DNA from: an uncultured Clostridia bacterium
Lineage (GTDB): Bacteria > Acidobacteriota > Blastocatellia > Chloracidobacteriales > JADJPF01
Direction of reading: 5' to 3'
DNA length: 51,963 bases
NCBI GenBank assembly: GCA_964536575.1
Contig: CAZHXL010000010.1
Coordinates: 1-51,963, forward strand
Part shown: piece after piece, positions 4,554 through 51,963 of the stretch
Layout of the letters: the number at the start of each line of letters is the position of its first letter
How positions within the stretch are numbered: position 1 is the first letter of the stretch
Program-made: the position numbers and the translations under genes
Notes under the pieces: model-generated
Databases searched by the model: none
What the model saw: only the letters and a program-made list of their open reading frames with translations
What the model was told of the DNA's origin: nothing

Positions 4554-4564
4554 TGCGAATGGGT

Positions 4565-8089: not shown

Positions 8090-8139
8090 AAATTAGTGTC
8101 GCCCTAAATCAGAACACAGGACATTGGTAGAGATAAAGA

Positions 8140-8551: not shown

Positions 8552-8632
8552 ATTATTCCTTTCAGTAGCTCCTACCTTCAAATTATAACCCGACTATTGT
8601 AGCCATATTATAGCTATTGTTGAAAAAAAAAC

Positions 8633-10045: not shown

Positions 10046-10096
10046 TCTTTAAAAAGCCTCCAAGAAACTATAAGCTAGATTAAACTAGTTATCATT

Positions 10097-13762: not shown

Positions 13763-13898
13763 AAAAACACTTCTCCATAAAAACTAACAGTACTTCTATT
13801 AACTGACGCGTAAAAATTACTAATTAGCTATCATATTACTAAGATTTTTTTCTAAAATTCTAATAGTTTTGTTTAAGCTTTGATACAGAGAAAAACAA

Positions 13899-13928
13899 AA
13901 AAGTAGTCACAACGTTGTGACTACTTTT
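13899..13928. repeat. Perfect 30-nt palindrome, GTAGTCACAACGTTGTGACTAC family (copy 1)
   Basis: AAAAGTAGTCACAAC|GTTGTGACTACTTTT. An identical sequence recurs at 37125-37154. Here it lies between two co-directional genes, so it could also terminate the upstream one. Confidence 0.85.
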
Positions 13929-13998
13929 CTATTACCTTTGTTTTTGGGTTTCTATAAAAACCACTTCATTGAAAACCACTTCATTGATAGTTTTCAGA

Positions 13999-27054: not shown

Positions 27055-30000
27055 TTAGTCTTTTCTTACGCCGTAGATCTCTTGTTGAGCCGATACTGGT
27101 TGATTTGCTTTAATGAAATCATCGTCTGTTGAATCAAAAGCCTTAGGCACTCTGTTAGAGTAGTAGTCTTCAGGGTTTATTGTATTTACTTCTTCGCCTA
27201 CAAAAACTGCTGCCTGAGCATTAAAAGTAGCAAGAACTACAGAGTTAGACTCTACGCCATTGGAGATGAGTTTGACTTGATTTGAACCAGTTTTTAGGTT
27301 GAGTTTTTTCTTGCTACCTTTCAAACTAACCAAACTAGTTGATACATTTCTAATAAAGCTAGAAACTTCTTTATTATTAACAAATACTCTGGTGTCTGTA
27401 CCAAAGTTTGCCCCATTGATAGTTAACATGGGTTTAGTATAACCTGCTGATGAAATCGTAGGTTTAGCCGCTTCTACAACTAAAGTAGCAGAAGTTGTAC
27501 GAGTAAGATTACCGCTAATACCTGTAATAGTAACAGCATAAGTGCCTAGAGGAGTGTTACTGTTAGTGACAATTGGCACAGTTGTAGCAGAGCTATTAGC
27601 AGAAGATACATCACTAGTGGCATTTGAAGGTAAACCACTAATGCTTAATAAAACATCACCAGAAAATCCACCAGTACTAGCACGGTTTAGTGTGTAACTA
27701 GCTGTTTCACCAGGGTTTACAGTTAAAGAGCTAGGTGATAATGATAGACTGAAGTCTTGCTGTACGTTTGAGTTAACTACTAATGTAAATACATTTGAAT
27801 CAGCAATGGTAACCCCTGAAGCTTTTCCTGTTACTACAAAATTGTAAATTCCAGCAGGAATACTATTAGTTGTAGTAATATTTAAGCCTACACCACTAGC
27901 AGTAGTGGGATTTTGTGAGTAGCCAAAAGTAAGACCAGGTATTGTTGTACCACTTAGGACTCTTAAACCTAGTTCTACCGCGTCAGTAAAGTTAGTACGA
28001 TTAATAGAAACAGGATAACTTGCTAGTTGTCCTTGAGTTATTGTTGTGGTTACTTGATTTACTTGTAACCCTACTGATTTTGCAATATTAACATTTTGTA
28101 CTGTCAAAATAGCTGATGCTGTTCGAGTTAATCCACCACCAATACCAGTAACAGTAATAGTATAAGTACCTGCTGGCGTATCACTGCTAGTAATAACAGG
28201 TAAAGTTACAGGGAAGCTAAAACTAGTAGGTAGTCCATTAATAGAATTAGAAGGAACGCCGCTAACATTTACCGATACATTACTGGAAAATCCATTGACA
28301 TCGTTACGGCCTAAAGTGAAATTAGCAATTTCACCAGATTTTACGGTTAAAGAGCTAGGTAATATTGAAAGATTAAAATCGGGCTGTGCTACCACTGGTG
28401 ACTTAACTACCAAAGTAAATGCGCTAGAGTCAGGAATGGTAATTCCTGTAGCTCTTCCTGTTAATACAAAGTTATAAGTTCCGGCTGGAGTAATATTAGT
28501 TGTAGCTATATTCAACCCTATATTATTGGCAGTAGTAGGATTTTGCGAATAACTAACGGTAACACCTGGTATAGTAACACCGCTTAACATTGTTAGGTTC
28601 AATGTTACAGGAGCAGCGAAATTGCTACGGTTAAGACCTACAGAGTAATTTGCTATTTGTCCTTGGTTTATTGTTGCTGTTGGTTGGCTTACCTGTATTC
28701 TAACTGATCTTGGAATAGGATTAATATTTTGCACAACTAGAGTAGCAGAAACTGTGCGAATAAAAGTTCCACGAATACCAGTAATAGTAATAGGATAAGT
28801 GCCTAGTGGCGTGTTACCGCTAGTAATAATTGGTAGTGTTACAGGAAAGTTGCTACTACTAGATAAATTAGCAACAGTATCTGAAGGTAAACCGCTAACA
28901 CTTAATGAAATATTGCCAGAGGAGTCTCCACCAATATTAGTGCGGTCTAGTATGAAATTAGCAGTTGCACCAGGTCTTACAGTTAAAGAACCAGGTGATA
29001 GTGATAGGCTAAAGTCTTGTTGCGAAAGTGAACTGACTACTAATGTAAGTACATTAGAGTCAGCAATAGTAATCCCTGGAGCTTTGCCTGTTACTACGAA
29101 ACTATAGCTCTTTATTGGAGTACTTTTAGTTGTAGTAATATTTAGGGTTACACCATTGGCAGTAGTAGGATTTTGTGAGTAACTAAAGGTAAGACCTGGT
29201 ATTGTTTCTCCTCCTACTACTGTCAATCCTAGCTCTATAGAGGGAGTAAAGTTAGTACGATTAATAGAAACAAAGTAACTTGCTGTTTGACCTTGGCCTA
29301 TTGTTGTAGTTGCTTGGCTTACTTGTAAACCTACTGATTTTGTAACATTAACATTTTGTACTGTTAATGTAGTAGAAGCTGTGCGAGTAAGGTTTCCACT
29401 AACACCAGTAACAGTAATAGTATAAGTCCCTGCTGGAGTATTACTGCTAGTGATAATAGGTAGGGTTACAGGAAATTTAATCTTAAGAGGTAGGCCATTG
29501 GTAGCATTAGCAGGAAGCCCACTTACGCTTAATGAGATATTACCTAAAGTTTTATTAGTAGAGTCCAAAGTAAAATTAGCTGTCTCACCAGGTTTTACAG
29601 ACAAGGGATTTGGCGATAATGATAAGGCGAAATCTTGTTGAACGGAACTAACCGCTAAAGTAAGCGGAGTAGAGTCACTAATAGTAATTCCCGAAGCTTT
29701 GCCTGTTATTACAAAATTATAAGTTCCTAATGGAGTTTGCTCTCTAGTAATAATATCTAGTGTGACAATATTGTCAGTAGTAAAGTTTGTAGAGTAGGCA
29801 AAAGTAATACCTGGGGTAGGATTATCATTTAATTCAGTCAACCCTAATTCCACAGGATTAGTAAAATTACTACGATCAATAGATACAGAATAACGGGCTG
29901 TTTGTCCTTTACCAATGGAAGTAGAAGGCGCAGATACTTGGAGCGTAACAGAACTAGATTGGTCAGACACCACAGGATAAATAGAGTTTACTTCCGAAAC

Positions 30001-30159
30001 ATTATTTAAGATGAAAGCAGGACTGTGGTTAGTATTAGCGTTAGCATCTGTAGTGACTGTTGCCACTAGAGCTAGTATAATAGCTAGTATAAATGTAAAG
30101 ATTTGGGTTTTTCTATATAAATAAAAATTCTTAAGTGCTAGGAAATTTTTTTCCTGCAT
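27055..30159 (-). CDS. Repetitive Ig-like-domain cell-surface protein
   Basis: Signal/anchor sequence. Four ~205-aa tandem units, each with two beta-sandwich-like halves (VGLQVSQ.TTTI.QGQ.ASY.VSINRTNF... and QQDFSLSLSP.SLTV.PGETANFTL...TPAGTYTITVTG). A C-terminal IPT-like module follows. Confidence 0.8.
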   Translation of the reverse strand: MQEKNFLALKNFYLYRKTQIFTFILAIILALVATVTTDANANTNHSPAFILNNVSEVNSIYPVVSDQSSSVTLQVSAPSTSIGKGQTARYSVSIDRSNFTNPVELGLTELNDNPTPGITFAYSTNFTTDNIVTLDIITREQTPLGTYNFVITGKASGITISDSTPLTLAVSSVQQDFALSLSPNPLSVKPGETANFTLDSTNKTLGNISLSVSGLPANATNGLPLKIKFPVTLPIITSSNTPAGTYTITVTGVSGNLTRTASTTLTVQNVNVTKSVGLQVSQATTTIGQGQTASYFVSINRTNFTPSIELGLTVVGGETIPGLTFSYSQNPTTANGVTLNITTTKSTPIKSYSFVVTGKAPGITIADSNVLTLVVSSLSQQDFSLSLSPGSLTVRPGATANFILDRTNIGGDSSGNISLSVSGLPSDTVANLSSSSNFPVTLPIITSGNTPLGTYPITITGIRGTFIRTVSATLVVQNINPIPRSVRIQVSQPTATINQGQIANYSVGLNRSNFAAPVTLNLTMLSGVTIPGVTVSYSQNPTTANNIGLNIATTNITPAGTYNFVLTGRATGITIPDSSAFTLVVKSPVVAQPDFNLSILPSSLTVKSGEIANFTLGRNDVNGFSSNVSVNVSGVPSNSINGLPTSFSFPVTLPVITSSDTPAGTYTITVTGIGGGLTRTASAILTVQNVNIAKSVGLQVNQVTTTITQGQLASYPVSINRTNFTDAVELGLRVLSGTTIPGLTFGYSQNPTTASGVGLNITTTNSIPAGIYNFVVTGKASGVTIADSNVFTLVVNSNVQQDFSLSLSPSSLTVNPGETASYTLNRASTGGFSGDVLLSISGLPSNATSDVSSANSSATTVPIVTNSNTPLGTYAVTITGISGNLTRTTSATLVVEAAKPTISSAGYTKPMLTINGANFGTDTRVFVNNKEVSSFIRNVSTSLVSLKGSKKKLNLKTGSNQVKLISNGVESNSVVLATFNAQAAVFVGEEVNTINPEDYYSNRVPKAFDSTDDDFIKANQPVSAQQEIYGVRKD
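27460..29950. repeat. Four tandem ~620-bp coding repeats
   Basis: There is DNA-level similarity between units. For example, ACCAGTAACAGTAATAGTATAAGT(A/C)CCTGCTGG recurs at about 28145 and 29405. Confidence 0.75.
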
Positions 30160-34004: not shown

Positions 34005-35702
34005 TTAATCAACCGTAACCCCATAACTATTTAGTAATGCTATTAGCCCAGCGGCAAAGCCCTGTCCAATGGCCTTAAATTTCCATTCACCTTTATATAA
34101 ATAAACCTCTCCTAAAATCAGTACTGTTTCGCTGCCTCGGTTTGTATAAAGATAATTTGTTAATTCTTTTCCATCTTGAGGGTTTATCACTCTTAACCAA
34201 ACAAAAGGCACAGCTTGGAAGGTTTGTCGGCGGGTTTCAGCTTCGTAAATCATTACAGAAAAAACTAATTTGGTAATGTTAGAAGGTATTTTAGTAAAAT
34301 TTAGAGAAAGTATTTCATTATCAAGTAAAGAGCCATCGCCACCTAAATGCTTAACTGCTCCACAAGAAGAAATAGGCGTATTGTAATAAATAAAGTCTTC
34401 ATCACTGCGTACATTTCCATTTGGAGTAGTTAAAATTACACTACCATTTAGCTCTAGGTTTGGACTAGTGCTTTCCCAACCTAAATGGACTTCTAATTTT
34501 TTTAACTCAGTAACAAGTTTAGATAAAGAAACATTAGCTCCGGCTGATAATGTGTTTTGATTAGGTAAACTGGTATTTGCTCGTTTAATAGAATTAGTTG
34601 TAGGGTTAGTTGTTTGATTACTTGTTTGTTGAGATGTGGGGCTATCAAACCAAATGTTGGTTTTAGGTTCAGTCGTTGAGTTAGCTACTTTATTTTCCTC
34701 TGTAAACCAAATGTCTTTTTTTTCAGGGGTAGAAGGTTTAGTGGGTTGATTATCAAACCAAACATCTTTTTTTTGAGCAGGAGCAGGGGGGGGAGTTTCT
34801 GCAAACCATGGGTCTTGTTTGGGTTTTGGTGGATCAAAGCGGTTTCTTATCTCTTTCATTTGTTGTTCGGCTACGGCTTTGTTTTCTAATCGGCTTAGCT
34901 CGTCTATTACTGGAGTAGGATGGTTTATAGGTGAGGAAGCAATAACAGGAGGATTATTAGGAGACGGCCTAGGATAACCTTGTAGTTCGGCTTGGGCTTC
35001 AGCTAATGCTTCGGCTTGCATTAAGTTTTTTTCTATCCGCTCTAGCTCGCTTTCCATATTGCCAGATTTTCCATGGACAGCATTATTCATTTTTTCTTGA
35101 ATTTGTAGCGAACGTTGACGGCTAATTAATAAATCTCGGTTGCGTTTAGCTTCTGCACGTTTATTAACTAAGGCTTGTAATTGTTCTTTAACCTGATTTG
35201 AGACACTTTGTTGTGAATCTATTTGGTTTTGGTATTCTGTAACCATTTGTTCATATTCTTGTTTACGAACTAGTGCATCTCTAGCTATATCATCACGCCC
35301 TGTTAAAATGGCTCTTTCAGCCCGATCTTTCCATTCTTTAACCCGTTCTAGTGTTGATGCTTTTTCTTGATAAAGTTTGTTTTCAATACTAGTAAATTCA
35401 GCTACATAAACACGAGCTTCTTCGATAGCTTGATCAATTTCTTTGATCATTTTATCAAAGATTTTTTCAGTTTCTGCTATTTGCTCATTAGAGGGAAGTT
35501 GTGGCGTTTGTGGTTTATTAGCAGGTTGACTAGTTGAACCACCCATTCCAAAAGCTCTACTAGCTCGATCACGCGCCTGGTCTATAGTGCGGTCAATACC
35601 ACCAAGAACTGAGCTAAAATTTCTTTCAAGGTCTCTTGTTTGTTCACGGGTATTACCCGTTTTTGCTTTCAAAATATTTGAAATTCTATCAAATATTCCC
35701 AT
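34005..35702 (-). CDS. PspA/IM30-domain protein fused to a C-terminal TerD domain
   Basis: ATG 35702 is preceded by AGGAGG (the track starts at 35723).
- N-terminus: MGIFDRISNILKAK plus a coiled-coil region (VKEWKDRAERAILTGRDDIARDALVRKQEY...) match PspA.
- Linker: Pro-rich, with four (D/N)xWF motifs.
- C-terminal ~170 aa: LEVHLGWES...DEDFIYYN...KLVFSVMIYEA...GEWKFKAIGQGFAAGLIALLNSYGV is a TerD domain. Confidence 0.85.
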   Translation of the reverse strand: MGIFDRISNILKAKTGNTREQTRDLERNFSSVLGGIDRTIDQARDRASRAFGMGGSTSQPANKPQTPQLPSNEQIAETEKIFDKMIKEIDQAIEEARVYVAEFTSIENKLYQEKASTLERVKEWKDRAERAILTGRDDIARDALVRKQEYEQMVTEYQNQIDSQQSVSNQVKEQLQALVNKRAEAKRNRDLLISRQRSLQIQEKMNNAVHGKSGNMESELERIEKNLMQAEALAEAQAELQGYPRPSPNNPPVIASSPINHPTPVIDELSRLENKAVAEQQMKEIRNRFDPPKPKQDPWFAETPPPAPAQKKDVWFDNQPTKPSTPEKKDIWFTEENKVANSTTEPKTNIWFDSPTSQQTSNQTTNPTTNSIKRANTSLPNQNTLSAGANVSLSKLVTELKKLEVHLGWESTSPNLELNGSVILTTPNGNVRSDEDFIYYNTPISSCGAVKHLGGDGSLLDNEILSLNFTKIPSNITKLVFSVMIYEAETRRQTFQAVPFVWLRVINPQDGKELTNYLYTNRGSETVLILGEVYLYKGEWKFKAIGQGFAAGLIALLNSYGVTVD

Positions 35703-35759
35703 ATTTCCTCCTAGCAACACCAAACAAAAGACCTTGAAGCGAAACTTAAATATAAACCT

Positions 35760-36341
35760 CTATAGTAATGATTGTATTACAGGAAGTAGGTCTCTAAAAG
35801 TAGTTCCATTCGTACCTTCTCCTATTGCGTGCATTTTCCATTCACCATCGTGGCGATAGAGTTTTACCATTACTTGAGCAGTGTTGTTTGCACCACCACT
35901 AAGATTATATCTAGCAACCTCTTCACCATTGGCTTGATTAACTATTCTACAAAAAGCATTGTTAATTGACGCAAAAGTTTGACCTGAGAAACTGCTAATA
36001 GTAAATACTAGATATTTTACATTTGCTGGTACAGTAGATAAATTAACAAATATTTGTTCATCATCGCCTGCACCAGACCCATCGCGGTTATCTCCGCTAT
36101 GTTTGATGCTACCATCTAGGCTATTAAGTTGACGAAACCAAATAGAGTCAATCATATGCTTGCTTTCATCAAACATAATACAAGAAGCGTCTAGGTCTAT
36201 ATCTTCATTACTAGAAAGAAAAGACATCCAACCGCTTTTCTTTTTCTGATCCCAACCTAGTCCCATTACTACTTTAGATAGTTTCTGACCAGAATCTTTT
36301 TCTAAAGATATTTTTTGTCCTTTTGATAAATTTATTGGCAT
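35760..36341 (-). CDS. TerD-family protein (TerZ/TerD-like)
   Basis: MPINLSKGQKISL...GLGWD...HSGDNRDGSGAGDDEQIFVNL...GEWKMHAIGEG, with GGAGG upstream. Confidence 0.9.
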   Translation of the reverse strand: MPINLSKGQKISLEKDSGQKLSKVVMGLGWDQKKKSGWMSFLSSNEDIDLDASCIMFDESKHMIDSIWFRQLNSLDGSIKHSGDNRDGSGAGDDEQIFVNLSTVPANVKYLVFTISSFSGQTFASINNAFCRIVNQANGEEVARYNLSGGANNTAQVMVKLYRHDGEWKMHAIGEGTNGTTFRDLLPVIQSLL

Positions 36342-36380
36342 ATTACCTCCTAGTTAACCCAATGCCTTAGCCTTGGGGTT

Positions 36381-36956
36381 TTAGACATTTACACCAAAAC
36401 TACGAATTAATTCAGGGAAACCACCTCGAAAACCTTGCCCTACAGCCTTAAATTTCCATTCAGTATTATGACGATAAACTTCACCAATAATCATAGAAGT
36501 TTCTAGACTAGCATCTTCTGAAAGATCAAACCGGGAAATTTCACTACGAGTAGCATTATTAAGCACCCGCATATAGGCTGAGGCTATCATGCCAAAATTT
36601 TGTTTTCGAGAATCTGCTTCATAAATTGAAACAGCAAAAACAAGTCTAGTGATTTCTTGAGGGACATTTACTAGATCTATTCTAATTACCTCATCATCCC
36701 CTTCGCCAACACCAGTGGTATTATCTCCTAAATGTTCAACAGAGCCATCTTGAGATTTACGATTGTTATAAAAAATAAAATCATAATCTGAACGAACTTT
36801 ACCACTAGCGGTAACTAGAAAAATACTAGCATCAAGGTCAAATGCAGAGCCGTCAGTCATACGAGCGTCCCAGCCTAAGCCTACTATGATTTTTTCTAGT
36901 CCTGGTTCTGTTTTAGTTAGAGAAATGTTACCACCTTTTTGCAAAGAAATACCCAT
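36381..36956 (-). CDS. terD: TerD stress/tellurium-resistance family protein
   Basis: [13 protein letters not shown]...GLGWDAR...DYDFIFYNN...[21 protein letters not shown]...[12 protein letters not shown] is canonical TerD, including the Ca-binding GDN.TG.G.GDDE motif. Confidence 0.92.
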
Positions 36957-40121: not shown

Positions 40122-41642
40122 TTAAAAACGACCAGTTAAAACAGCTTGGCCACTTAGAATGCGAATTTCAACCAGTTGAATGTTATTAACCAAGCTAACA
40201 ACTAAGGGCAATGCTCGTTCACTCCCTTTAGGCTTATTACTAAATTTAATTTCTGCACTGCCTCGAAAGTTTGTTGTGAAAGTTGTTATTTCTTCATCAT
40301 TTACAAAGAGTTTATAGGTGGTTACTTGGTCAAGATTTTCTACTTTAACTGAGAATTTCTGTTCTATAATTAAACCGATATCTCTTTCAATGCTAATTTC
40401 ACTCTTTCCTCTAGCATCTAAATTAATGTTAGTACTAAGAAGTGTAATTTCTCGGTTTTCTCTACTCCTTTCACAACTACCTATAATGGCGTTAGTTAAA
40501 AGAACTTCTCCACTGATTATTCTAAGTTCAATAAGTTGAATGGTAATAAGGTTTAATGGTGGTAGTAGCTGTTGGTTTGATCTAGGGGAGCTACTCATTA
40601 CCAATGTGCTTTTACCTATAACGTCTATTGGAATAGTTGCAACCTCAGAATTATCAATAAAGAGTTTTACAATAGAAAGAGGAGTAACATTTTCTATTTT
40701 TAACTCAAGCTCTTGCTGATTATTTCCATTTTCAGCCTCAACATCAATTTCAACTCTAGCTCTAACATCTATATCTATAGAACTTGCTAGGGTATGTTTA
40801 CTTTCAAATTTAATTTTATTACTAGTAGGGTTATCTACACTCCCAAGTAAAATAGGACGTTCACTACGGTCTTTAACAGCAACTGAAATTACCTTAAATA
40901 GGTTTATAGAAGCGGGTAAGGGGAGTTCTCCTCTTTTTGGGTTATCCCTAAATTCTAGACTTGCTCTACCATCTGACCTAACAGTAAAAGAAGCAATGTG
41001 GATATTATTAACAAAAAGATCAAGAGGTGAGCCTGGAGTAAGTTTTTCCATTTTTACTTCTAGTTCTTGGTTAATAATAATATTGTTTTCTCTTACTACT
41101 TTTATTTCTGCTATTCCTAGTTCTAGAGGTCTAGGAGCAGCAACTTCTGTAGAGAATAAAGAAATCTCTTGTTCCAATTCTTCACTCTTACAACCTTGAG
41201 GACTATTTATTGGTACAAAACTACCACTTAAAACCAAACGACCTATGGAGTCTTTGATCTCTACTAATTTAATTTGGGTTACTGGATTTAATACTCCTGG
41301 TAAGAGTAAATGGGAGCCTTTAGGATTTGCTTCATAAATAACCTCAAAAGCCCCACCAGGGTTAGTAAGAAACGTGTTAATAAAAATTCCATTTATGTTC
41401 AAAACAAACAAAGTTTCCCTAGGTAATTGCTCAACTTTGAGTGAAAACTTTTGAATAGTTCTTTGTCTCTTTTCCTTAAAAAATATTTCTGCAAAACCCT
41501 TAGCATTAATTGCAGTATTGGTGGGTGTTAGAGAAATACGATTTTCTATGGGTTTGGTTTTCTTTTCATTTTCATTAGCTATAGCAACAGAAGAACAGAT
41601 CAAAATTAAAAATACTAGGAAAACATACTTAATTTTTTTCAT
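40122..41642 (-). CDS. Secreted protein built from four ~125-aa repeat modules
   Basis: Signal peptide. A recurring pattern appears four times: Q.F.VKVE.L......LFVN......F.TN..G.AE..F...PKGS...LP......I..VEI.......VL.G.F. No family recognised. Confidence 0.65.
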   Translation of the reverse strand: MKKIKYVFLVFLILICSSVAIANENEKKTKPIENRISLTPTNTAINAKGFAEIFFKEKRQRTIQKFSLKVEQLPRETLFVLNINGIFINTFLTNPGGAFEVIYEANPKGSHLLLPGVLNPVTQIKLVEIKDSIGRLVLSGSFVPINSPQGCKSEELEQEISLFSTEVAAPRPLELGIAEIKVVRENNIIINQELEVKMEKLTPGSPLDLFVNNIHIASFTVRSDGRASLEFRDNPKRGELPLPASINLFKVISVAVKDRSERPILLGSVDNPTSNKIKFESKHTLASSIDIDVRARVEIDVEAENGNNQQELELKIENVTPLSIVKLFIDNSEVATIPIDVIGKSTLVMSSSPRSNQQLLPPLNLITIQLIELRIISGEVLLTNAIIGSCERSRENREITLLSTNINLDARGKSEISIERDIGLIIEQKFSVKVENLDQVTTYKLFVNDEEITTFTTNFRGSAEIKFSNKPKGSERALPLVVSLVNNIQLVEIRILSGQAVLTGRF

Positions 41643-41995: not shown

Positions 41996-43069
41996 ATGAG
42001 TAACACTTTTTCTACTGAGTCAACACGTTGGCAAGCATTAGTTGAACGTAATCAACAGGCTAATGATATTTTTGTTTATGGGGTATTGACGACAAAAATT
42101 TACTGTCGTCCTGCGTGTAGTTCACGTTTGCCAAACCAAGAAAATGTAAAGTTTTTTGATAGCTGGCAAATAGCAGAAAAAACAGGCTTTCGTGCGTGCA
42201 AACGTTGTAGCCCACAAGTGTCTGATAAAGCTGATCCATCTATTAGCGCGATTATTTCTGCTTGCAAACTTATAGAAACATCAGAAAACCTTCCCTCACT
42301 TAATGAGCTAGCTAACAGAGTTGGTTTAAGCTCTTATCATTTTCACCGTATGTTTAAGAAAATTGTTGGGCTTACTCCTAAACAATATGCTTTAGAAAAA
42401 CGGCTTTCTCAAGTGCGAGCTAATCTGCAAACGGACGCTAGTATTACTGATACTGTTTATAATGCTAGGTTTGAGTCTAGTAGTCGCTTTTATGAAACTG
42501 CTACTTCGTCATTAGGAATGAAACCAACAAAGTATCGTTGTGGGGGCTTAGGAATAAAAATTCGTTTTGCTATAGTTCAATCTTATCTAGGTTATGTGCT
42601 AGTAGCGGCTACAGAGCAGGGTATTTGCAAAATAGACTTTGGTGATAGCCAGGAACTTTTAGAAGAACTCTTAAAAAAGACTTTCCCTCATGCTGATTTA
42701 CAAACCAGTGACACAGATTTTCAAAGCTTAGTAGAAGAAGTTTTAACTTTTTTAGAAACACCAAATCGTGGCTTATCCTTACCACTTGATATTCAGGGAA
42801 CGGCCTTTCAACGTCGCGTTTGGGCAGCTTTGCAAAATATAGCACCAGGTACAACTAGTAGTTATTTGCAAGTAGCCACACAAATTGGTAGTCCAAAAGC
42901 AGTACGTGCTGTTGCACAGGCTTGTGCTGCTAATAACATTGCAGTAGCTATTCCATGTCACCGTGTAATACGTAATGACGGAGATTTAGCCGGTTATAAG
43001 TGGGGAATTAACCGCAAACAAAGGCTCTTAGAGCAAGAATCATCTTTTTTGGCTTCTGAAAAGCGATAG
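41996..43069 (+). CDS. ada: Bifunctional Ada: methylphosphotriester-DNA methyltransferase/AraC regulator plus O6-methylguanine-DNA methyltransferase
   Basis: N-terminal Zn-Cys4 motif (YCRPACSS...FRACKRCSP). AraC HTH (LNELANRVGLSSYHFHRMFKKIVGLTPKQY). C-terminal active site AIPCHRVI. Confidence 0.9.
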   Translation: MSNTFSTESTRWQALVERNQQANDIFVYGVLTTKIYCRPACSSRLPNQENVKFFDSWQIAEKTGFRACKRCSPQVSDKADPSISAIISACKLIETSENLPSLNELANRVGLSSYHFHRMFKKIVGLTPKQYALEKRLSQVRANLQTDASITDTVYNARFESSSRFYETATSSLGMKPTKYRCGGLGIKIRFAIVQSYLGYVLVAATEQGICKIDFGDSQELLEELLKKTFPHADLQTSDTDFQSLVEEVLTFLETPNRGLSLPLDIQGTAFQRRVWAALQNIAPGTTSSYLQVATQIGSPKAVRAVAQACAANNIAVAIPCHRVIRNDGDLAGYKWGINRKQRLLEQESSFLASEKR

Positions 43070-43222
43070 ATATAGCTATAAAATAAACATGTTTGTTAGC
43101 TAGGAAATCTTTTTCTATAAAGGTTTGATAGTGCTTTGGGTTTTACTTATGATGTGAGACTTATAGGTTTCTCAACTACTGAACTATATCGACATTTTAT
43201 TTTTGTCTGTTTAGGAGCCATA

Positions 43223-46200
43223 ATGTCTCGGATAAATTTGCGCAACTTGTTTTCTAGAGAAAACCTGCGTAAAAAATTGCTGATTTTTGCTGCATTACTA
43301 ATAGCATTTATTGCTTTATTAGTTGGCTCGCTAGCACTATATATAAGAAGTGAAAGGTTTAATCAGTTTGTTATTTCTCAAATTAAAGCCACTGCTCCTT
43401 TATATGGATTACGTGTTGAGGTAGGAGGTTTTGGGTTTAGTCTGAAGGCAAGTCAAGCAGAACTCAAAAACCTTAAAGTCTTTAATAAAAAAACAGACCA
43501 GTTACTACTTGAAGTCGAGCGAGCAGAGCTAAACGCCAAAGTTGTTGACCTTTACGCGCTTAAATTACAACGTCAGGTGATACTGGAAACCTTAAACCTG
43601 AAAGGACTAAAACTTTTTTTAGAATTTAAGCCTAATGGTACTAATAATCTTACAGGCATAGGATCACTTAATAATACTCCTAGCAGCCCTGGTGCTATTG
43701 AAGTAGATAGCTCACACCTAAATATAGCAATTACTGATAGTAGTATATCCTTAAAGGATAGTGTAAACCGTGTTGACCTTAACCTAAACAATGTTGGGAT
43801 TGAAGCTAAATTAAAAAGTGCTACCCAAGCAGCAATAAAAGTAAAAGGTGATGGTGAGATTTCTTATCAAGATTACAATACTAAGATTAAATCTATTGCA
43901 ATCAATGGGTTAATTAGTGACCAAGGCTTAGAGCTTTCTCCAAGCCTACTTGTGACTACTTTAGGAAAAATTGAGCTTAATGGTCAACTTAAGGATTGGA
44001 AAAAGTTAGAGCATCAACTAGAGTTTCAGGCTGAAACAGAGTCTTTAGAAATTGCCGACCTGAAAATAAAAGGTCAAAGCAATTTTCAAGGTAAGGTTGT
44101 TGGTGATAAAAACTCATCTCGCTTAACTGGAAGTCTAAATATCGCTGACCTAACAGCTAGTAAGACTCATCTTATTGGCTTAGAAGTGGCTAACCTAGAA
44201 CTTGCTACAGGAGCAAGGCTTGATTTAGCTACTGAGGAAATTAAAGTTCAATCTGTTAATGTCAATTCAATAACTGCTAAAAATATAAAGATCCCTAGCT
44301 TAAAAGGTAGCCTTTCAAACAGCCTTGAGGTTGTTGTACCAAAGTTGTCCACTGTCTCAATAGTTGTTCCTAATAGTCAAATAAATGGTATCCAATTAAG
44401 TGATATTAACTTAAAACTCTTAGACAAAGGTTTGGATGCAACAGTTAAACAGGCTTTAGTTGCTAGTGTCACAACTGCTAATGGTAAAGTAAATTCTATA
44501 AAATTTAGCCAAGTGGCAGTAGAAACAAAAGGTTCTAACTATAAAGTAGAAACAGATTTATTTTTATCAACGGCAATATTTAATAATATTCAAGCTGAAC
44601 AAGTTAACAGTAAACTACTTTTAGAAAACAACATTCTTACATTATCAAAACTAAAAACAAACCTATTTGGAGGACAAGCCGACCTAGAAACACAGATTGC
44701 TTTATCTGGTAATACAACGTCTCGTTTACAGGCTAAATTCGGGCAAATTAATAGTGCAGAACTAGGTAAAATACTGCAAAAAGAACCTTTACCAATTACA
44801 GGACTAATTGGAGGTAGTGCAGAGCTAACTTGGCCTGGGATAGATATTCTTAGAGCAAGTGGACAGTTAAAAGCTACTGTTCAAGGAGAAACAGCAGCAA
44901 ATACTGACAAATTACCGCTTACTGCCGAGCTACTTGTGCAAGCCCAAGATGGTAAATTAAACATTAACCCATTAAAGGCTAAATTAGGAGAAACAGACAT
45001 ATCTCTACAGGCAACAATTTTTCCTAAAACTAAAATGATTGCGGCTGAGTACCAAGTTAACTCTAATAATTCTGAGCAGTTACTTTTACTAGCCAAAAAT
45101 TTGAAACTGCTTGACGAGCAAATTCTAGACTATAAACCTGAGTTATCAGGAAATTTAAAAGCCGTAGGACAAGTAAATGGCACATTTGATAAACTGTCTA
45201 TTACTACTGAGTTTGAAACCAGTAGCGTAGGTTTTCAAGATAATAAATTTTCAAGCTTAATTGGTAAACTACAATTAACACCTGAAGATATCCAAGTTGA
45301 TGTTAATAAACTCTTAGATACTCAAGGTGGGATGCTTAGCTTTAATTATCAAGGAAAGATTAGTGATCCTGTTAATACAGGAAGGTTAAAAGCAGACTTT
45401 CAAGATTTTCACCTCCAACTATATCAACAGCCTGAAAACAAAGAGATTTTTGTTGGTGCAATTAATGGCAAAGCAGAATTTACTAGACTAAGTGAAAATG
45501 GTGAAGGCAAAGCACAACTTACCTTAAATAACAGTAGGGTTGCGAGCCAAAAAATAGACTTGGCAGAGGTTGAAATAGGGCTAGCCAATCAACTACTTGA
45601 GCTTAATATTATTTCTTTACAAGTAGCTGCGGCTAAAATTGATGGTAAAGGCGCGCTAAGCTTAAAGACGAAAGACTTTAACTTTCAAGGACAAGTTAAA
45701 GACCTAGACCTAGCCAAAATAACTACAGATGCTTCTTTGGCAGGGATAGTAAACGCGAGTCTTCAAGTAAATGGTAATGTTAATGACTTAAATGGTTTAC
45801 AACTATCTTTACAGGCAGAATCTAAAGACCTGCGTACCCCTACAACCAAGCTTGGGCAGCTTTCTTTGTCTGCTAAGACTGATAATCAAGGGCGTATTCA
45901 AGCTGAAATAGTTTCTTATCTAATTCCTACACAACCACAAAAAATTTTTGCTACAGTGTCTCCTAACAAGGATGGCTACCCTTTAGAAATAGAAAGCCAA
46001 TTATCAGAATTAGATATTGCTTTATTACTAGCAGTTCTTAAAGTTGACACTAAAGGAGCTATTAGTAGTAAATTATCTGCAAAAATATTTGTTAAAGGTA
46101 ATATTCTCAACAGTAAAGATGAGTTTAGCTTAGATAATTTCCAAGGCAACATGCTGCTTACGTCTGCTAGTCTAAAACTTTCTGAGCAACCGCTTAATAT

Positions 46201-49200
46201 TGAAACCCCCTGTAATATTACATTTGACCAAGGTAAATTATGTGTAGAGCGAATGCGTGTTTTTAATGATAGCTCAGATATAACTCTTAGTGGGCAATTA
46301 GGTTTAAGTGGAAATAACCCTTTAGAATTTATTACAAATGGGACAGTTAATCTTGCACAATTTGCTAGTTTAATCCCTGATAGCTCACTTGCTGGGTTAG
46401 TTAAGGTAGACAGTAAATTAACTGGAACAGTCAATAAGCCTAATCTTTCTGGAAGCTTACTAGTTAGCAACCTAGCTTTTGCACGTCCAGATTTACCTGT
46501 AGAGTTTAGAAATGGAAATGGTTTAATTAGGTTAAATAACGATAAGGTTTTATTAGATAATTTTGTTATAAGAGCAAATGATGGGCAAGTTACTGGAGTT
46601 GGACAAGTTGACTTAAAAGGCTTTGAAATTGCTAACTTAAAGCTAAAACTCTCAGCTACAGATATAAACTTAATCTATCAAGCTGTTGCTATGACTCTTA
46701 AAGGAGATGTGACATTAGAGGGAAATCAAAACTTCCAAGTACTTAAAGGTAATATAAAGGTTTTAGAGGCAATATATTCAAAGCCTTTTGATACTAGTTT
46801 ACTGGGTAGCAGTACTAGTATTATTGATTATTCAAAGAGTCTTTTTTCACCAAGGCTAGACATTAATATTGATGCTGATAGCTCTATAATTGTACGTAAT
46901 CCACAAATTGATACAGTTGCTTCAGCCTCAATAAGTTTAGGCGGACAAATCGACAATCCCAATTTAACCGGGCGTATTTCTTTAGAAGGTGGGACAGTTA
47001 CTCTACGTAAGCAGCGTTATGATATTACACAAGGGATTTTAGATTTACCAGGAGGGATTTTACTTCCTACCATAGATTTATTAGCAGAAGGAAACGTTAG
47101 TACTTACCGAGTTTTTATCCGTTTTACTGGGCCAGTAGACCAAATTGACCTAGAGTTAGAGTCTGAACCAACTTTAACACGTACAGAAATACTAGCTCTA
47201 ATTACTACAGGACGTACTGAAATAGGTGGAGGAGACAATCAAGATCTAACGACTACAGGGCTTAGCACAGGGGCTAATTTATTAGCACAAGAATTTATTT
47301 CTAAACCATTTGGCCGCAAAGCAGAACAGTTTTTAGGTTTAAGCCAATTTCAATTTGATCCAATAATACGCCCAAATGAAAACCCTTCAGCCCGTTTAAC
47401 CTTAGGACGACAGATTATTCCTAAACTTTCTTTTACTTATTCAACTAGTCTTAGTAGCAGCAAAGATCAAGCTATTGTGCTGGAGTATAATTTGTCAAAT
47501 CGCTTTTCTTCACTGTTTTCTTTTACTCAAGGTGGAGGTACATCTACTAAAGGTAATACTAGTGATAGTGACTATGCTTTTGAAATACGTGGGCGAGAGC
47601 GTTTTGCATTAGGTGGAAAAGGTAATCTAGAAAAAAGTACTATGCTCTCTACAATGAGTAGCTTTAAGCCTTTGACCTTGCCTACAGCAGAAGTAATTGT
47701 GGACAAACCAGAAGAAATAAAAATTGATAATGACACTTTACGCGACTTATTGCCAATTAAGCGACAAGCCTTTAGTAGCCCGCTTGCACGGCTTGGACAA
47801 GAAAACTTAACTAATTATTTACAAGAAAAAGGATATTTTTTTGCTAAGGTTTCAACTAGTTGTGAGCCTTTTGATTGCCAAGGAACAAACCTAAAAGTCC
47901 GTTATCAGGTCACTTCTGGCACTCGTTATGAAGTGAGACAAATAACTATTACAGGAACAAACCTATTTTCTCCTGCTAGTGTTATTAGCCAACTACAATC
48001 AAAAGAGAAAAACTTTGTTGGTAACTTTCCTATTTTGCGTAGCTTACCGTTTATTGGTGGTTTGGCTGATGGAATAACTAGCAATGAACGACTTCGCCAA
48101 GATAGCGACCTAATAAGGCAACAATTAGTTGATTTAGGTTATCGTCAAGCCACTGTTTCCTATAGCTATGATATTGATTCTGATGGACTTGGGCTAAAGA
48201 TAGGCTTTAATGTCACAGAAGGTGCGATTAGTCGAATAGGAGAAATAGACTTACATGGGGTAAGTCTATTAAACAAAGAAGAATTAAGGCAAGAGATTTC
48301 TATTAGCTTGGGTGATCCTTTTTTTCCCTCTCGTCCTCGTGAAGTAGCACAAAAACTAGTAGATTATTACGCCCAACAAGGTTATTTAGACACTAAAATT
48401 GATCTAGAAATAGAACAAATGTCTAATAACAATGTTCGCTTAATTTATCAAATAAACGAAGGATCAATTGCAACTGTTGGTGATGTGGTATTTATTGGAA
48501 CAGTTGGAGTTAATGAAAAAGCACTGCGACGATTTATTGAACTAAAACCAGGACATATAATTACTAATAGGAAACTCCAGAGGCTACAAAAAGGCCTTTA
48601 TGCTACTGGAAATTTTCGAGAAATTCAAATCCTTACCATTCCTGGAATAGGAAAAAATCCAACAGATAGACAAGTATTAATCAAACTAACCGAAGCTAAA
48701 CCATTGCTATTAGTTTATGGTTTTGGTTTTTCTAGCGATGATGGGCCGAGAGGCTCTCTAGAGTTAAGTAATACAGATTTTTTAAACAGAATTAATAGTG
48801 CCTCTTTACGTTTACGTTTGGGTAAACGCGAACAGACACTACAACTACAACTTACTGACCCACGCCCTTTTGGTAGTAGATGGTCAACAACTTTTTCAGC
48901 CCTCTACAGCCGAGTTACAGAATTAGCGGGCACTAGCGAGCAAATTAGTAATGTTGATCAAATCGGGCTAGATAATACTAATATTGGTTTATCTCGTTTC
49001 TCGTCATTTATACAAACAGAGCGTCGTCTAACCAACCATGTTTCAGTAAGATTTCGTTATAACTTTGAGTTAAACAAGTTGCTAAATTTAGAGGATGCTC
49101 AGTTTAGTGCTTTTGCTGAAACTTCGCGAATTACTCGGATTGCTACATTATCTGTAGGCTCGTCTTATGATAGTCGTAACAACCCAATTAACCCAACTAG

Positions 49201-49846
49201 CGGGCAGTTTTTTAGTGTTGATTATTCAATTGCTGCACGCATATTAGGTGGAAATGAATCTTTTAACAAGATTAGTACTAATTACCAATATTATACTAAA
49301 ACAAAAGAATCTTTTCCTGTCCCTTTTATAAACCGTTCTATAATAGCTTTTTCCTCTAGAATAGGCTTAGCCGCACCTTTTGAGATTCGTTCACGCCGTA
49401 ATGATGGAGTTATTACTGATTCAGACAGGCTACTTCCTTTTAGTGAACGTTTTCGTAGCGGTGGTGCTACTACACTGCGAGGATTTCAGTTTGAAGAGGC
49501 TGGCCCACAAGCTGTTGTTGAAGTAGGAAACGCTCCTGCTCGTTTGGTGTCACTTGGTGGAGATGCTTTAGTAGTGCTTAATTTAGAGCTACGCTACCCA
49601 ATTTCTAAACGCTTACAATTAGTTCCATTCTATGATTTAGGCAATGTCTTTTCTCGTGTTAAAGACATTAATTTTAGTAGAATGACTAGTACTATAGGAG
49701 TAGGGCTAAGGTTTAATACTCCTATTGGGCCAATAGGGGTTGATTATGGTTATTTACTAGACCCACAATCTTTTACCACACCTAATGGCGGGGTACTACG
49801 CCAACGTCAAGGGGTTATACATATTAAGTTTGGACAATCTTTCTAG
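43223..49846 (+). CDS. Fusion protein: TamB-like (AsmA-like region + DUF490) N-terminal part joined to POTRA repeats and an Omp85 (TamA/BamA-like) beta-barrel
   Basis: ATG 43223 follows AGGAG (the track starts at TTG 43136).
- N-terminal signal-anchor LLIFAALLIAFIALLVGSLALYI.
- Long beta-rich repetitive region.
- DUF490-like block at about 46980-47610 (PTIDLLAEGNVSTYRVFIRFTGPVDQIDLELESEPTLTRTEILALITTGRT).
- About four POTRA units, 47700-48690.
- Barrel 48700-49843 (LLLVYGFGFSSDDGPRGSLELSNTDFL ... GVDYGY ... VIHIKFGQSF-stop). Confidence 0.85.
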   Translation: MSRINLRNLFSRENLRKKLLIFAALLIAFIALLVGSLALYIRSERFNQFVISQIKATAPLYGLRVEVGGFGFSLKASQAELKNLKVFNKKTDQLLLEVERAELNAKVVDLYALKLQRQVILETLNLKGLKLFLEFKPNGTNNLTGIGSLNNTPSSPGAIEVDSSHLNIAITDSSISLKDSVNRVDLNLNNVGIEAKLKSATQAAIKVKGDGEISYQDYNTKIKSIAINGLISDQGLELSPSLLVTTLGKIELNGQLKDWKKLEHQLEFQAETESLEIADLKIKGQSNFQGKVVGDKNSSRLTGSLNIADLTASKTHLIGLEVANLELATGARLDLATEEIKVQSVNVNSITAKNIKIPSLKGSLSNSLEVVVPKLSTVSIVVPNSQINGIQLSDINLKLLDKGLDATVKQALVASVTTANGKVNSIKFSQVAVETKGSNYKVETDLFLSTAIFNNIQAEQVNSKLLLENNILTLSKLKTNLFGGQADLETQIALSGNTTSRLQAKFGQINSAELGKILQKEPLPITGLIGGSAELTWPGIDILRASGQLKATVQGETAANTDKLPLTAELLVQAQDGKLNINPLKAKLGETDISLQATIFPKTKMIAAEYQVNSNNSEQLLLLAKNLKLLDEQILDYKPELSGNLKAVGQVNGTFDKLSITTEFETSSVGFQDNKFSSLIGKLQLTPEDIQVDVNKLLDTQGGMLSFNYQGKISDPVNTGRLKADFQDFHLQLYQQPENKEIFVGAINGKAEFTRLSENGEGKAQLTLNNSRVASQKIDLAEVEIGLANQLLELNIISLQVAAAKIDGKGALSLKTKDFNFQGQVKDLDLAKITTDASLAGIVNASLQVNGNVNDLNGLQLSLQAESKDLRTPTTKLGQLSLSAKTDNQGRIQAEIVSYLIPTQPQKIFATVSPNKDGYPLEIESQLSELDIALLLAVLKVDTKGAISSKLSAKIFVKGNILNSKDEFSLDNFQGNMLLTSASLKLSEQPLNIETPCNITFDQGKLCVERMRVFNDSSDITLSGQLGLSGNNPLEFITNGTVNLAQFASLIPDSSLAGLVKVDSKLTGTVNKPNLSGSLLVSNLAFARPDLPVEFRNGNGLIRLNNDKVLLDNFVIRANDGQVTGVGQVDLKGFEIANLKLKLSATDINLIYQAVAMTLKGDVTLEGNQNFQVLKGNIKVLEAIYSKPFDTSLLGSSTSIIDYSKSLFSPRLDINIDADSSIIVRNPQIDTVASASISLGGQIDNPNLTGRISLEGGTVTLRKQRYDITQGILDLPGGILLPTIDLLAEGNVSTYRVFIRFTGPVDQIDLELESEPTLTRTEILALITTGRTEIGGGDNQDLTTTGLSTGANLLAQEFISKPFGRKAEQFLGLSQFQFDPIIRPNENPSARLTLGRQIIPKLSFTYSTSLSSSKDQAIVLEYNLSNRFSSLFSFTQGGGTSTKGNTSDSDYAFEIRGRERFALGGKGNLEKSTMLSTMSSFKPLTLPTAEVIVDKPEEIKIDNDTLRDLLPIKRQAFSSPLARLGQENLTNYLQEKGYFFAKVSTSCEPFDCQGTNLKVRYQVTSGTRYEVRQITITGTNLFSPASVISQLQSKEKNFVGNFPILRSLPFIGGLADGITSNERLRQDSDLIRQQLVDLGYRQATVSYSYDIDSDGLGLKIGFNVTEGAISRIGEIDLHGVSLLNKEELRQEISISLGDPFFPSRPREVAQKLVDYYAQQGYLDTKIDLEIEQMSNNNVRLIYQINEGSIATVGDVVFIGTVGVNEKALRRFIELKPGHIITNRKLQRLQKGLYATGNFREIQILTIPGIGKNPTDRQVLIKLTEAKPLLLVYGFGFSSDDGPRGSLELSNTDFLNRINSASLRLRLGKREQTLQLQLTDPRPFGSRWSTTFSALYSRVTELAGTSEQISNVDQIGLDNTNIGLSRFSSFIQTERRLTNHVSVRFRYNFELNKLLNLEDAQFSAFAETSRITRIATLSVGSSYDSRNNPINPTSGQFFSVDYSIAARILGGNESFNKISTNYQYYTKTKESFPVPFINRSIIAFSSRIGLAAPFEIRSRRNDGVITDSDRLLPFSERFRSGGATTLRGFQFEEAGPQAVVEVGNAPARLVSLGGDALVVLNLELRYPISKRLQLVPFYDLGNVFSRVKDINFSRMTSTIGVGLRFNTPIGPIGVDYGYLLDPQSFTTPNGGVLRQRQGVIHIKFGQSF

Positions 49847-50052: not shown

Positions 50053-50315
50053 AAAGAGTTAGACTTTAAAACCCAGACACCAAAATCTCAAAATTTGAAC
50101 AATAGGTAAAATCCTTATAACTATTTTATTAAGGATGAATTGATTCTCTTAGGTTGATGTGCATGGGGAGGATACCCATTGAATAAGACCCCTATTAGTG
50201 TTACTGTAAGTTAATTGGTTTTGGGTACTCTTCCGAAACACCACTTAAAAATATCCAGATAGGTACGGATCTGAAAAAGCTTTTACCTTTCATGAGCCAA
50301 CTAAGGAGGCTTAAT

Positions 50316-51143
50316 ATGTCGAAGTCGTATTTACTTGGTATTGTCGCTGGAACCACATTGCTAATGGTTGGTAGTGTTGTAGGGTCTAATCTGCAACGCG
50401 CTACAGCGGCTAAACCACAACAAACTCTAGGAACTGCTTTACAACAAATGAAACTTGCCGAAGAAGAAGCAATCTACAGTAAAGAGATTAGGGATGCTAC
50501 GCCAGTACAACTTGGCAGATTAACACGCACACAGCAAATTCACAGCAAATTTTACACTCATTACAAAGAGTTAAGGGGGAAAGCAATTAGTGAAATTGCT
50601 GCACCGTTTAAAGGTAAGAACAAGGTTATCGAAACCGTGGTTTGTTTGCCGTTATTGGAAAAGCTTACAGAGCCGGAAACGCCAGAATATTATTTTGGTA
50701 AGCTTACAAATAACTCTGATGCGGTAATACGCGGTAAAGTTATAAATGTAACTTCGCAACTTACTGAAGACGATGGATTTATATTCACAGATTATAATAT
50801 TGCGGTAGCAGAGGTGTTGAAGAACAACACAACCTCTCCAATTAAGGCAGGGGCAACAGTTAGCGTTATTCGCCCTGGTGGGAAGGTTGTATTTGATGGT
50901 GTAATAGTGAAGGCTAAGGATCAAATGCTTGCGCCATTGAATATGGAAAAAGAGGTCGTACTATTTTTAAAGTTTATTCCCGAAAGTGGATCTTACCAGT
51001 CAACTGATCCTTCTGGAACCTTTGAACTGGACGGTTCGTCTATTCGCCCACTAACTGACCTTGCGTTCCCGCCTGGGGTACTTGGCGATAGTGACAGAAA
51101 TTCTTTTTTGCAGACTTTCCGAAATAGATCGCAGGAGCAATAA
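50316..51143 (+). CDS. Secreted hypothetical protein
   Basis: AAGGAGG lies 6 nt before ATG 50316 (the track starts at 50292). Signal peptide SYLLGIVAGTTLLMVGSVVGS. No family recognised. It looks more GC-rich than the surrounding sequence. Confidence 0.6.
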   Translation: MSKSYLLGIVAGTTLLMVGSVVGSNLQRATAAKPQQTLGTALQQMKLAEEEAIYSKEIRDATPVQLGRLTRTQQIHSKFYTHYKELRGKAISEIAAPFKGKNKVIETVVCLPLLEKLTEPETPEYYFGKLTNNSDAVIRGKVINVTSQLTEDDGFIFTDYNIAVAEVLKNNTTSPIKAGATVSVIRPGGKVVFDGVIVKAKDQMLAPLNMEKEVVLFLKFIPESGSYQSTDPSGTFELDGSSIRPLTDLAFPPGVLGDSDRNSFLQTFRNRSQEQ

Positions 51144-51383: not shown

Positions 51384-51963
51384 ACCATCTTCTGCGAGCG
51401 CAGTCTGGGCCATTAATGGCCGAGTTAAGCGAGCGATCACCTGGTAAGGTGATAAATAAGTAGAAAATTAAGTGAAAATATATAGACAAAATAAGAGAAA
51501 AGAATTAAAATAAATGCCATTAAACTATAAATAAAAGAACAAGTTATGTCACTTAACGGAGTCAAGTTCAAAGCAAACCCAACTTCAGAACAAAAATTGA
51601 TATTATCTCAATGGATGGGATGTGCTCGTTTTATCTATAATGCAAAATGCGATGAAGACCAATACTTAAGAACATTTCTAAAACACAGCCTGAGTTTAAC
51701 AGGGTGGTCTGTACCAATAGACCAAACCTACTCACAGTTTAAGACAGAACTAACACCTTGGTTAGCTGATTGTCCATCACAAATATTACGAAATAGTTCA
51801 GTTAGATGGTATGAAGCTTATCAACGTTATTTCCAAGGTTTAGCAGGACGGCCTTCAAAGAAAAAGAAAGGAAAAAAGATAGCATTTGGTTAACTCGCGA
51901 GCTTTTCCAAATAGAAATATTGTTTGACCCAGAAACAAAGCAAAAAAGCTATCAACTATTTAT
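51384..51963 (+). mobile_element. Left part of an IS200/IS605-family (tnpB-only, IS1341-like) element; runs off the window
   Basis: Subterminal hairpins TGGGCCATTAATGGCCGA (51406-51422) and ATCACCTGGTAAGGTGAT (51436-51453), a GCGAGCG direct repeat, then tnpB. The exact left boundary is not determinable. Confidence 0.55.
51546..51963 (+). CDS. tnpB: TnpB (OrfB_IS605) RNA-guided nuclease family, N-terminal part, with a -1 frame change at 51872-51878
   Basis: FKANPTSEQKLILSQWMGCARFIYN and PWLADCPSQILRNSSVRWYEAYQRYFQGLAGRPSKKKKG are typical of the TnpB N-terminus. Frame 0 stops at 51891-51893. The -1 frame continues as DSIWLTRELFQIEILFDPETKQKSYQLF to the window end. Confidence 0.8.

Follow-up and report, generated by a model that had tools for sequence, protein, structure and literature searches.

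A TamB-Omp85 gene fusion in Acidobacteriota that probably encodes a single-chain translocation and assembly module

The contig CAZHXL010000010.1 of an uncultured bacterium placed by GTDB in the Acidobacteriota (assembly GCA_964536575.1), analyzed here over its 51,963 nucleotides and referred to as the window, carries on its forward strand a gene at 43223..49846 (2207 codons and a stop codon in one frame) in which a complete TamB-like protein is covalently joined to a POTRA/Omp85 outer membrane protein, in the order TamB then Omp85. This architecture had been proposed in an earlier note made from the sequence alone, and it is supported by our profile searches, which find both domains. We consider it probable that the gene encodes a natural single-chain version of TAM (translocation and assembly module), which in Escherichia coli consists of the two subunits TamA and TamB.

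An open reading frame (ORF) listing showed a single open frame at 43136..49846 (+) spanning the whole fused gene. Translation from the ATG at 43223, which has AGGAG 5-6 nt on its 5' side, gives 2207 amino acids with no internal stop codon, bearing out the uninterrupted reading frame claimed before. AlphaFold2 (AF2) models of both halves were judged by secondary structure and by predicted local distance difference test (pLDDT) scores. In the model of residues 1-1160 (pLDDT 84), a helix at 12-41 covers the hydrophobic stretch at 19-41 (LLIFAALLIAFIALLVGSLALYI; 43277..43345, +) and is followed by a second helix at 44-61 and then by about 70 consecutive long strands in a nearly all-beta chain. Residues 19-41 thus correspond, in the translation and in the model, to the N-terminal signal-anchor helix described in the earlier note. 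An equivalent hydrophobic N-terminus is shared by the fused homologues, and the helix would act as an inner-membrane anchor.

The TamB body comprises residues 42-1319 (43346..47179, +) and was delimited from the AF2 strands, an NCBIfam TamB match at residues 387-1180 (E 5e-18) and the first part of a Pfam TamB match (PF04357, DUF490). The latter begins at residue 1118, extends to 1439 with an E value of 3.5e-36 and covers profile positions 8-369 of 381. The strand pattern of the body agrees with published descriptions of the TamB beta-taco, and the body may form a lipid groove that spans the periplasm. No Pfam match above threshold was found in the N-terminal 1100 residues of the window protein, and the corresponding region of homologues gave only faint or sub-cut-off matches to TamB_N, DUF748 and AsmA. 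Of the roughly 1400 residues of AsmA/TamB-like beta repeats claimed before, an all-beta TamB body of about 1300 residues is borne out, though not by any above-threshold Pfam match in that N-terminal part. A Foldseek search of the N-terminal 1160 residues against the PDB returned only low template modelling (TM) scores for the ApoB100 beta-belt and LptD, and an E value of 0.22 for the TamB chain 9xdc_B. The proteobacterial TamB equivalog model NF047952 scored 64 bits against a curated cut-off of 825. With its C-terminal DUF490 module and a signal-anchor followed by a long, almost all-beta body, the protein is a member of the TamB family and not an equivalog of proteobacterial TamB.

The terminal segment of the TamB part (residues 1320-1461; 47180..47605, +) was defined from AF2 and alignment and ends in DYAFEIRGRERF. 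In the model of residues 1100-2207 (23-sequence alignment, pLDDT 74), beta-taco strands continue to about residue 1315 and are followed by amphipathic helices at 1320-1371 and then by exactly six strands at 1375-1461 with hydrophobic/polar alternation, the last of which is DYAFEIRGRERF, ending ...AFEIRGRERF. Helices, six strands and an aromatic, beta-signal-like last strand are a feature of the TamB family, except that here this strand is internal rather than C-terminal. The C-terminal ends with which the segment aligns are ...ALDLLYQFEF in E. coli TamB and ...RLRKRF* in split Blastocatellia TamB proteins, and all fused loci conserve F-x-[IF]-E-[ILVFM]-R-G-R-x-R-F as the strand motif, with S/A-L-G after it. 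The junction falls exactly after the former terminal Phe (residue 1461, nt 47605). The DUF490 module and its aromatic terminal strand had been recognized correctly in the earlier note, but the end of the strand had been placed near nt 47590. Throughout the alignment, the position corresponding to E. coli TamB D1252 is Asp or Glu, which by itself we do not take as evidence for a salt bridge; the alignment at D1200 is ambiguous and was likewise not used as evidence.

Between the junction and the first POTRA domain lies a fusion linker of 28 residues (1462-1489, ALGGKGNLEKSTMLSTMSSFKPLTLPTA; 47606..47689, +), which has no hydrophobic core and is predicted to be disordered (pLDDT <50). Its counterparts in homologues measure 25-40 residues, differ in both length and sequence and have a high content of Pro/Ala/Ser/Thr. 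Past the junction, the translation shows no hydrophobic stretch resembling a signal peptide. The lack of a stop codon, of a second signal peptide and of a hydrophobic linker core, as read earlier from the sequence, thus agrees with the translation, while split homologues do hold a stop codon and a signal peptide at the position of the linker. An internal translation start for the Omp85 half was considered and rejected, since the linker's Met residues are not followed by a signal peptide.

The C-terminal half contains four POTRA domains at residues 1490-1824 (47690..48694, +) and a 16-strand Omp85 barrel at 1828-2207 (48704..49843, +), both delimited by Pfam, AF2 and Foldseek, in accordance with the POTRA units and the barrel with its C-terminal beta-signal anticipated from the sequence. 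Pfam POTRA (PF07244) matches in four stretches (E 1.1e-33), which AF2 models as four beta-alpha-alpha-beta-beta units, and Pfam Omp85 (PF01103) matches residues 1858-2207 (E 1.5e-47). The L6 motif LRGF is found at 2085-2088, and the C-terminal beta-signal IHIKFGQSF ends in Phe as the last residue. POTRA repeats, a 16-strand barrel, an L6 motif of the form (V/I/L)RG(F/Y) and a C-terminal aromatic residue, all of them characteristic of the Omp85 superfamily, are therefore present. Foldseek matched the C-terminal ~780 residues to BamA chains with E values of about 1e-40. The BamA equivalog model TIGR03303 aligned over residues 1500-2183 and scored 276 bits with the full-length chain and 280 bits when only the Omp85 half was used, below its cut-off of 297, compared with 328-332 bits for stand-alone Blastocatellia BamAs. 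The TamA equivalog model NF047950 gave 85-91 bits against a cut-off of 625, and the protein has four POTRAs where TamA has three.

The fusion is real, ancient and common in Acidobacteriota, and it is not an assembly artefact, because one continuous frame holds across dozens of independent assemblies. An initial protein search returned full-length fused homologues at 67-78% identity (four), at about 35% identity (three, one of them on a 9.5-Mb chromosome) and many more at 17-26% identity. Acidobacteria, Aminicenantales and Thermoanaerobaculia were among its source names. Five close relatives, at 67-78% identity, keep the junction in frame despite substitutions. Distant fused relatives with 17-36% identity are named Thermoanaerobaculia, Aminicenantales and Polarisedimenticolia. 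A scan of GTDB species genomes with an 8-sequence alignment yielded 76 loci, nearly all labelled Blastocatellia or Acidobacteriota, whose ORFs were re-derived and searched with hidden Markov models (HMMs), one each for N-terminus, DUF490 and barrel. The anchor at the N-terminus, DUF490 and Omp85 stood in one open frame of 2191-2470 amino acids in 52 of 75 loci, and about eight further loci, cut by contig ends, still had DUF490 then Omp85 in frame. We also searched 1.84 billion cluster representatives exhaustively with HMMER and examined the best 150 clusters at 50% identity; among these, 113 had DUF490 then Omp85 in one protein, 94 of the 113 were at least 1800 amino acids long, and a C-terminal Phe was found in 89 of these 94 full-length fused homologues. 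Thermoanaerobaculia and Polarisedimenticolia are among the names of the cluster members. The same architecture, for which the earlier note had suggested a search of orthologues, was therefore recovered by both surveys.

It could be argued that two neighboring genes had been joined through an overlooked stop codon, a frameshift or chimeric assembly, all the more so since split tamB-omp85 neighbors exist in related genomes and one reverse-order protein looks like a frameshift artefact. This explanation is effectively refuted: the frame is continuous in 52 independent loci and in over 100 protein clusters that stem from various projects and sequencing platforms, there is no signal peptide of the kind a separate Omp85 would require, and substitutions in the close relatives have left the junction in frame. 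The reverse-order protein, P0045 (L003 10001-16555, on a 2.47-Mb contig), has POTRA, Omp85 at 326-679 and TamB at 793-2184 in one ORF. Its last barrel strand is missing and is followed in frame by 'MVRRSLGGALWGIVGLLACGLGV' (MVRRSLGG...), the apparent true TamB start and anchor. We rejected it as a probable assembly frameshift of a tamA-tamB operon.

Two or three full-length fused paralogues were found in each of the single metagenome-assembled genomes (MAGs) MFD03602.bin.2.40, SMAG_U8955 and SMAG_U3747, which suggests a diversification like that of the several AsmA-like proteins of E. coli. The paralogous loci are L008 and L012; L018, L023 and L027; and L030, L039 and L044. A shorter fused clade of 1906 amino acids (P0029, L082 6001-11721; also P0037) has ShlB-type POTRA matches. 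The LipA adjoining P0029 shares 77-90% identity with proteins of MAGs named Pseudomonadota, Bdellovibrionota or Deltaproteobacteria, and we tentatively suggest on this basis that Acidobacteriota may not be the only group with the fusion. Ten loci (L011, L013, L015, L016, L040, L050, L051, L060, L062 and L069) hold Blastocatellia-type fused genes 33-49% identical to the query in third-party annotation (TPA) MAGs labelled 'uncultured Heliomicrobium sp.' or 'Heliobacteriaceae'; these taxonomic labels look wrong. Databases hold hundreds of fused proteins under the automatic names 'BamA', 'YaeT' or 'TamB domain-containing protein', with the fusion unflagged. Such names hide the fusion and may inflate counts of BamA in Acidobacteriota.

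Comparison with related genomes also points to how the fusion arose. In L075 (Pyrinomonadaceae), tamB occupies 2908-8049 and omp85 8049-11396, so that the start of omp85 uses the last base of the tamB stop codon, while in L072 (4101-10436) tamB ends at 7355 and omp85 starts at 7359, three bases apart. The split TamB proteins end in ...RLRKRF* or ...IRFRRRF*, and the split Omp85 begins with its own signal peptide, e.g. ...LLLLTLPVLAQN. These stand-alone Omp85 proteins are about 1025-1115 amino acids long with roughly seven POTRAs, and the N-terminus of the one in L072 closely resembles the stand-alone BamA L073. Since related Blastocatellia carry adjacent tamB then omp85, the fusion amounts to a simple read-through of neighboring genes, and the comparison shows that it arose from such a pair via loss of the tamB stop codon. 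The usual order tamA then tamB, against which the fused order had appeared inverted in the earlier note, is proteobacterial; the relatives of the window organism have tamB first. By BLAST, the window Omp85 half from about residue 1484-1495 aligns to about residue 292-302 of stand-alone BamAs of 1025-1033 amino acids, and the window clade has thus lost about three POTRAs as well as the signal peptide. Fused clades at a greater distance retain an additional POTRA behind the junction.

The fused protein keeps every element of the published arrangement of TamB and TamA in trans. In E. coli, the last strand of TamB, which has a motif resembling a beta-signal, pairs with TamA beta1; the stable TamAB hybrid barrel that results holds six membrane-embedded TamB strands, where the lipid-carrying groove ends (PMC13119328). 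The same arrangement has been predicted for Borrelia BamA-TamB (PMC13382580). By analogy, the fused protein would be exported by Sec and kept in the inner membrane by its uncleaved N-terminal helix, while about 1300 residues of beta-taco would cross the periplasm. A separate stand-alone BamA would fold the Omp85 barrel into the outer membrane, recognizing the terminal ...KFGQSF, and the amphipathic strands 1375-1461 would next take up a position at beta1 of the barrel in the same chain, just as TamB does in trans on TamA. Because six is an even number of strands, this segment would begin and end on the periplasmic side, which makes a short tether to POTRA1 topologically possible, and the flexible 28-residue linker could reach it. 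The result would be a bridge that couples the inner and outer membranes permanently, by homology most likely for phospholipids; the fused protein may also help to assemble outer-membrane proteins.

The earlier note had raised the problem that a barrel must be inserted in the outer membrane while tethered to an inner-membrane anchor. Here too BAM, the machinery for beta-barrel assembly, would have to fold a tethered barrel, but the situation is less paradoxical than it seems because ordinary TamB already places its six C-terminal strands in the outer membrane (PMC13119328, PMC13382580). In the MAG JANMAL01, a fused gene (L007) occurs together with a stand-alone BamA (L073; 328 bits on TIGR03303, cut-off 297) that could assemble the tethered barrel. 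A separate bamA, which the earlier note had proposed to look for, thus stands in the same genome as the fusion in this related MAG, while none was found in the 52-kb window.

Several points weigh against a single-chain TAM. The helper BamA is taken from one related MAG because the window itself shows no bamA within its 52 kb, and the docking of strands 1375-1461 onto barrel beta1 is proposed by analogy with the complexes described above. There is no conservation of TamA K283, which has been published as the partner of TamB D1252 and by eye aligns with Ser. We applied mean-field direct coupling analysis (mfDCA) to 205 fused sequences (effective number of sequences, Meff, 154); its power was low, and the top pairs were mostly in loop or gap columns. 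After filtering, it recovered the known coupling between the L6 RGF and beta13 and gave no adjacent-strand ladders (12 of the top 150 pairs), and because such ladders did not appear, the method has no power for a pairing of the last TamB strand with beta1. We found no experimental study of any Acidobacteriota TAM, and the function is assigned by homology alone. Proteolytic cleavage in the linker is also compatible with the data. The protein could then be a polyprotein, made and exported as one piece and cut in the linker by a periplasmic protease to give an ordinary two-subunit TamB-Omp85 complex, which would guarantee 1:1 stoichiometry and co-localization. Proteases would have access to a linker that is disordered (pLDDT <50), variable and high in Pro/Ala/Ser/Thr, and the former terminal ...RERF strand is fully kept, as if a free C-terminus might matter. 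Nevertheless, we regard processing of this kind as unlikely, since no cleavage motif is conserved in the linker across clades, the conserved S/A-L-G after the Phe suggests that the chain continues in a defined way, and stably interacting partners, once fused, do not normally need to be cleaved.

A different possibility is that the fused protein is the main BamA of the organism with TamB attached, and thus a general insertase rather than a dedicated TamA-like partner. The Omp85 half comes close to the cut-off of the BamA model (276-280 bits near 297) and far exceeds its TamA or TamL scores, its best Foldseek matches are BamA chains, and many homologues have been named BamA or YaeT by NCBI and JGI. 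The window holds no bamA, and spirochaetes provide a precedent in which TamB works with the only BamA. We find this role improbable all the same. JANMAL01 has, besides the fused L007, a stand-alone BamA that scores above the cut-off (L073), and the two or three fused paralogues in some genomes are unlike an essential single-copy insertase. The first copy of the barrel could not easily insert itself without a free BamA, and substrates would be shut out of a seam that was permanently filled by six strands of the same protein.

Among known systems, the E. coli TAM (PDB 9XDC, 'TamAB hybrid barrel state'; PMC13119328) resembles the fused protein in its signal-anchor, its beta-taco and a DUF490 with helices, six strands and an aromatic end, as well as in an Omp85 partner with POTRAs, a 16-strand barrel and the L6 RGF motif. 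It differs in being built from two subunits, each with its own targeting signal, rather than one polypeptide, and in its gene order, tamA then tamB. In a TAM complex, besides the pairing of the last TamB strand with barrel beta1, a POTRA domain binds a loop of TamB. The fused protein has four POTRAs compared with three in TamA, a BamA-like barrel and a TamB part about 200 residues longer, and its identity to the E. coli proteins is only 21-22%. In the spirochaete BAM-TAM hybrid of Borrelia burgdorferi (PMC5582053, PMC13382580), as here, TamB has a BamA-type Omp85 as its partner, tamB precedes bamA in the gene order (Heinz 2015) and the six C-terminal strands of TamB are predicted to complete the BamA barrel at beta1 (PMC13382580). 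In contrast to the fused protein, TamB and BamA of spirochaetes are separate, and this BamA is the only one of the cell, with five POTRAs and its own signal peptide. The closest unfused relatives that we found are the split pairs of L075 and L072, with 30-34% identity over the Omp85 part and 23-26% over the TamB part. They share the gene order and the ...RF end of TamB, but have a stop codon and a signal peptide between the genes, and their Omp85 is about 290 residues longer at the N-terminus (roughly three more POTRAs) than the fused one.

Heinz et al. 2015 (PMC4494059) reported a second BamA with seven POTRAs adjoining TamB in Acidobacteria, with the order BamA-TamB in the Acidobacteria examined and no mention of a fusion. 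Omp85 proteins with N-terminal fused modules are known, such as the patatin-Omp85 PlpD and the Omp85-WD40 'BamA-BamB-like' proteins (Heinz & Lithgow 2014, PMC4104836). These also have an extra functional module in front of the POTRA/barrel part; however, their modules are soluble periplasmic or secreted ones behind a cleavable signal peptide, and none is envelope-spanning and anchored in the inner membrane. TamL-TamB of Bacteroidota and TIC236-TOC75 of plastids likewise pair a TamB-family bridge with a lineage-specific Omp85, but as separate polypeptides, TamL being a lipoprotein. The full-text literature covered here, with paywalled papers outside its scope, included a paper on TAM evolution, a survey of the Omp85 superfamily, a 2024 TAM review and structural papers from 2026, and we found no description of a TamB-Omp85 fusion in it. 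The statement in the earlier note that this architecture is undescribed therefore stands as far as papers are concerned, but the fusion is widespread in Acidobacteriota and its proteins have already been named automatically without it being flagged.

Fusion of stably interacting neighbors is an expected type of event and not a new kind of system, yet it is mechanistically informative. How TamB-type bridges are coupled to the outer membrane is an active question, and a phylum-wide fusion tests the hybrid-barrel model. A natural TamB-Omp85 fusion provides independent 'Rosetta-stone' evidence for a permanent 1:1 unit, and it fixes the topology, in that the TamB end must be periplasmic and within a 25-40-residue tether of POTRA1. 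It also poses a problem of biogenesis in which BAM would fold a barrel still anchored to the inner membrane, whose own six strands would then enter the seam. A single-chain construct with fixed stoichiometry could aid structural work and in-vitro studies of lipid transfer. As a broader proposal, which we put forward tentatively and hold to be plausible but short of probable, the main lipid bridges of Acidobacteriota could be uncleaved single-chain machines with an intramolecular 22-strand hybrid barrel (six TamB and 16 Omp85 strands), folded by BAM while tethered via about 1800 residues and multiplied into two or three paralogues per genome that share the roles of YhdP, YdbH and TamB in E. coli. 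If true, such machines would prove, by a natural example, that TAM works permanently as a hybrid barrel and that this barrel is not an assembly intermediate.

The fused gene stands alone in its locus. On its upstream side are a gene for an Ada-type methyltransferase (41996-43069) and a LytTR two-component pair, and the downstream neighbor is an ORF with no match in a Pfam search. Because gene neighborhoods differ among homologous loci, no operon partner is implied. A promoter-like site at 43125-43153 is a consensus match only, and the promoter and terminator counts of a scan were not above chance.

Elsewhere in the window, three TerD-domain genes stand in a row at 34005-36956 (-), one of which (34005-35723, -) encodes a 571-residue protein with a PspA/IM30 domain at 79-247 and a TerD domain at 390-566. 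Tandem paralogous giant proteins of 1220 and 1332 amino acids with Big_2, TIG and NHL/teneurin-like beta-propeller repeats are encoded at 10097-18000 (-), and a protein of 1173 amino acids with many TPR repeats and a C-terminal CHAT (caspase-like) domain at 4565-8089 (-). Long ORFs without a Pfam match are found at 27055-30159 (-, 1033 aa), 2436-4553 (+, 705 aa), 40122-41642 (-, 505 aa) and 50292-51143 (+, 283 aa); two of these four flank the neighborhood of the fused gene. Finally, an ORF at 51546-51893 (+) with an IS605 OrfB-type helix-turn-helix stops about 70 bases before the end of the window and may be the N-terminal fragment of a TnpB-like gene.

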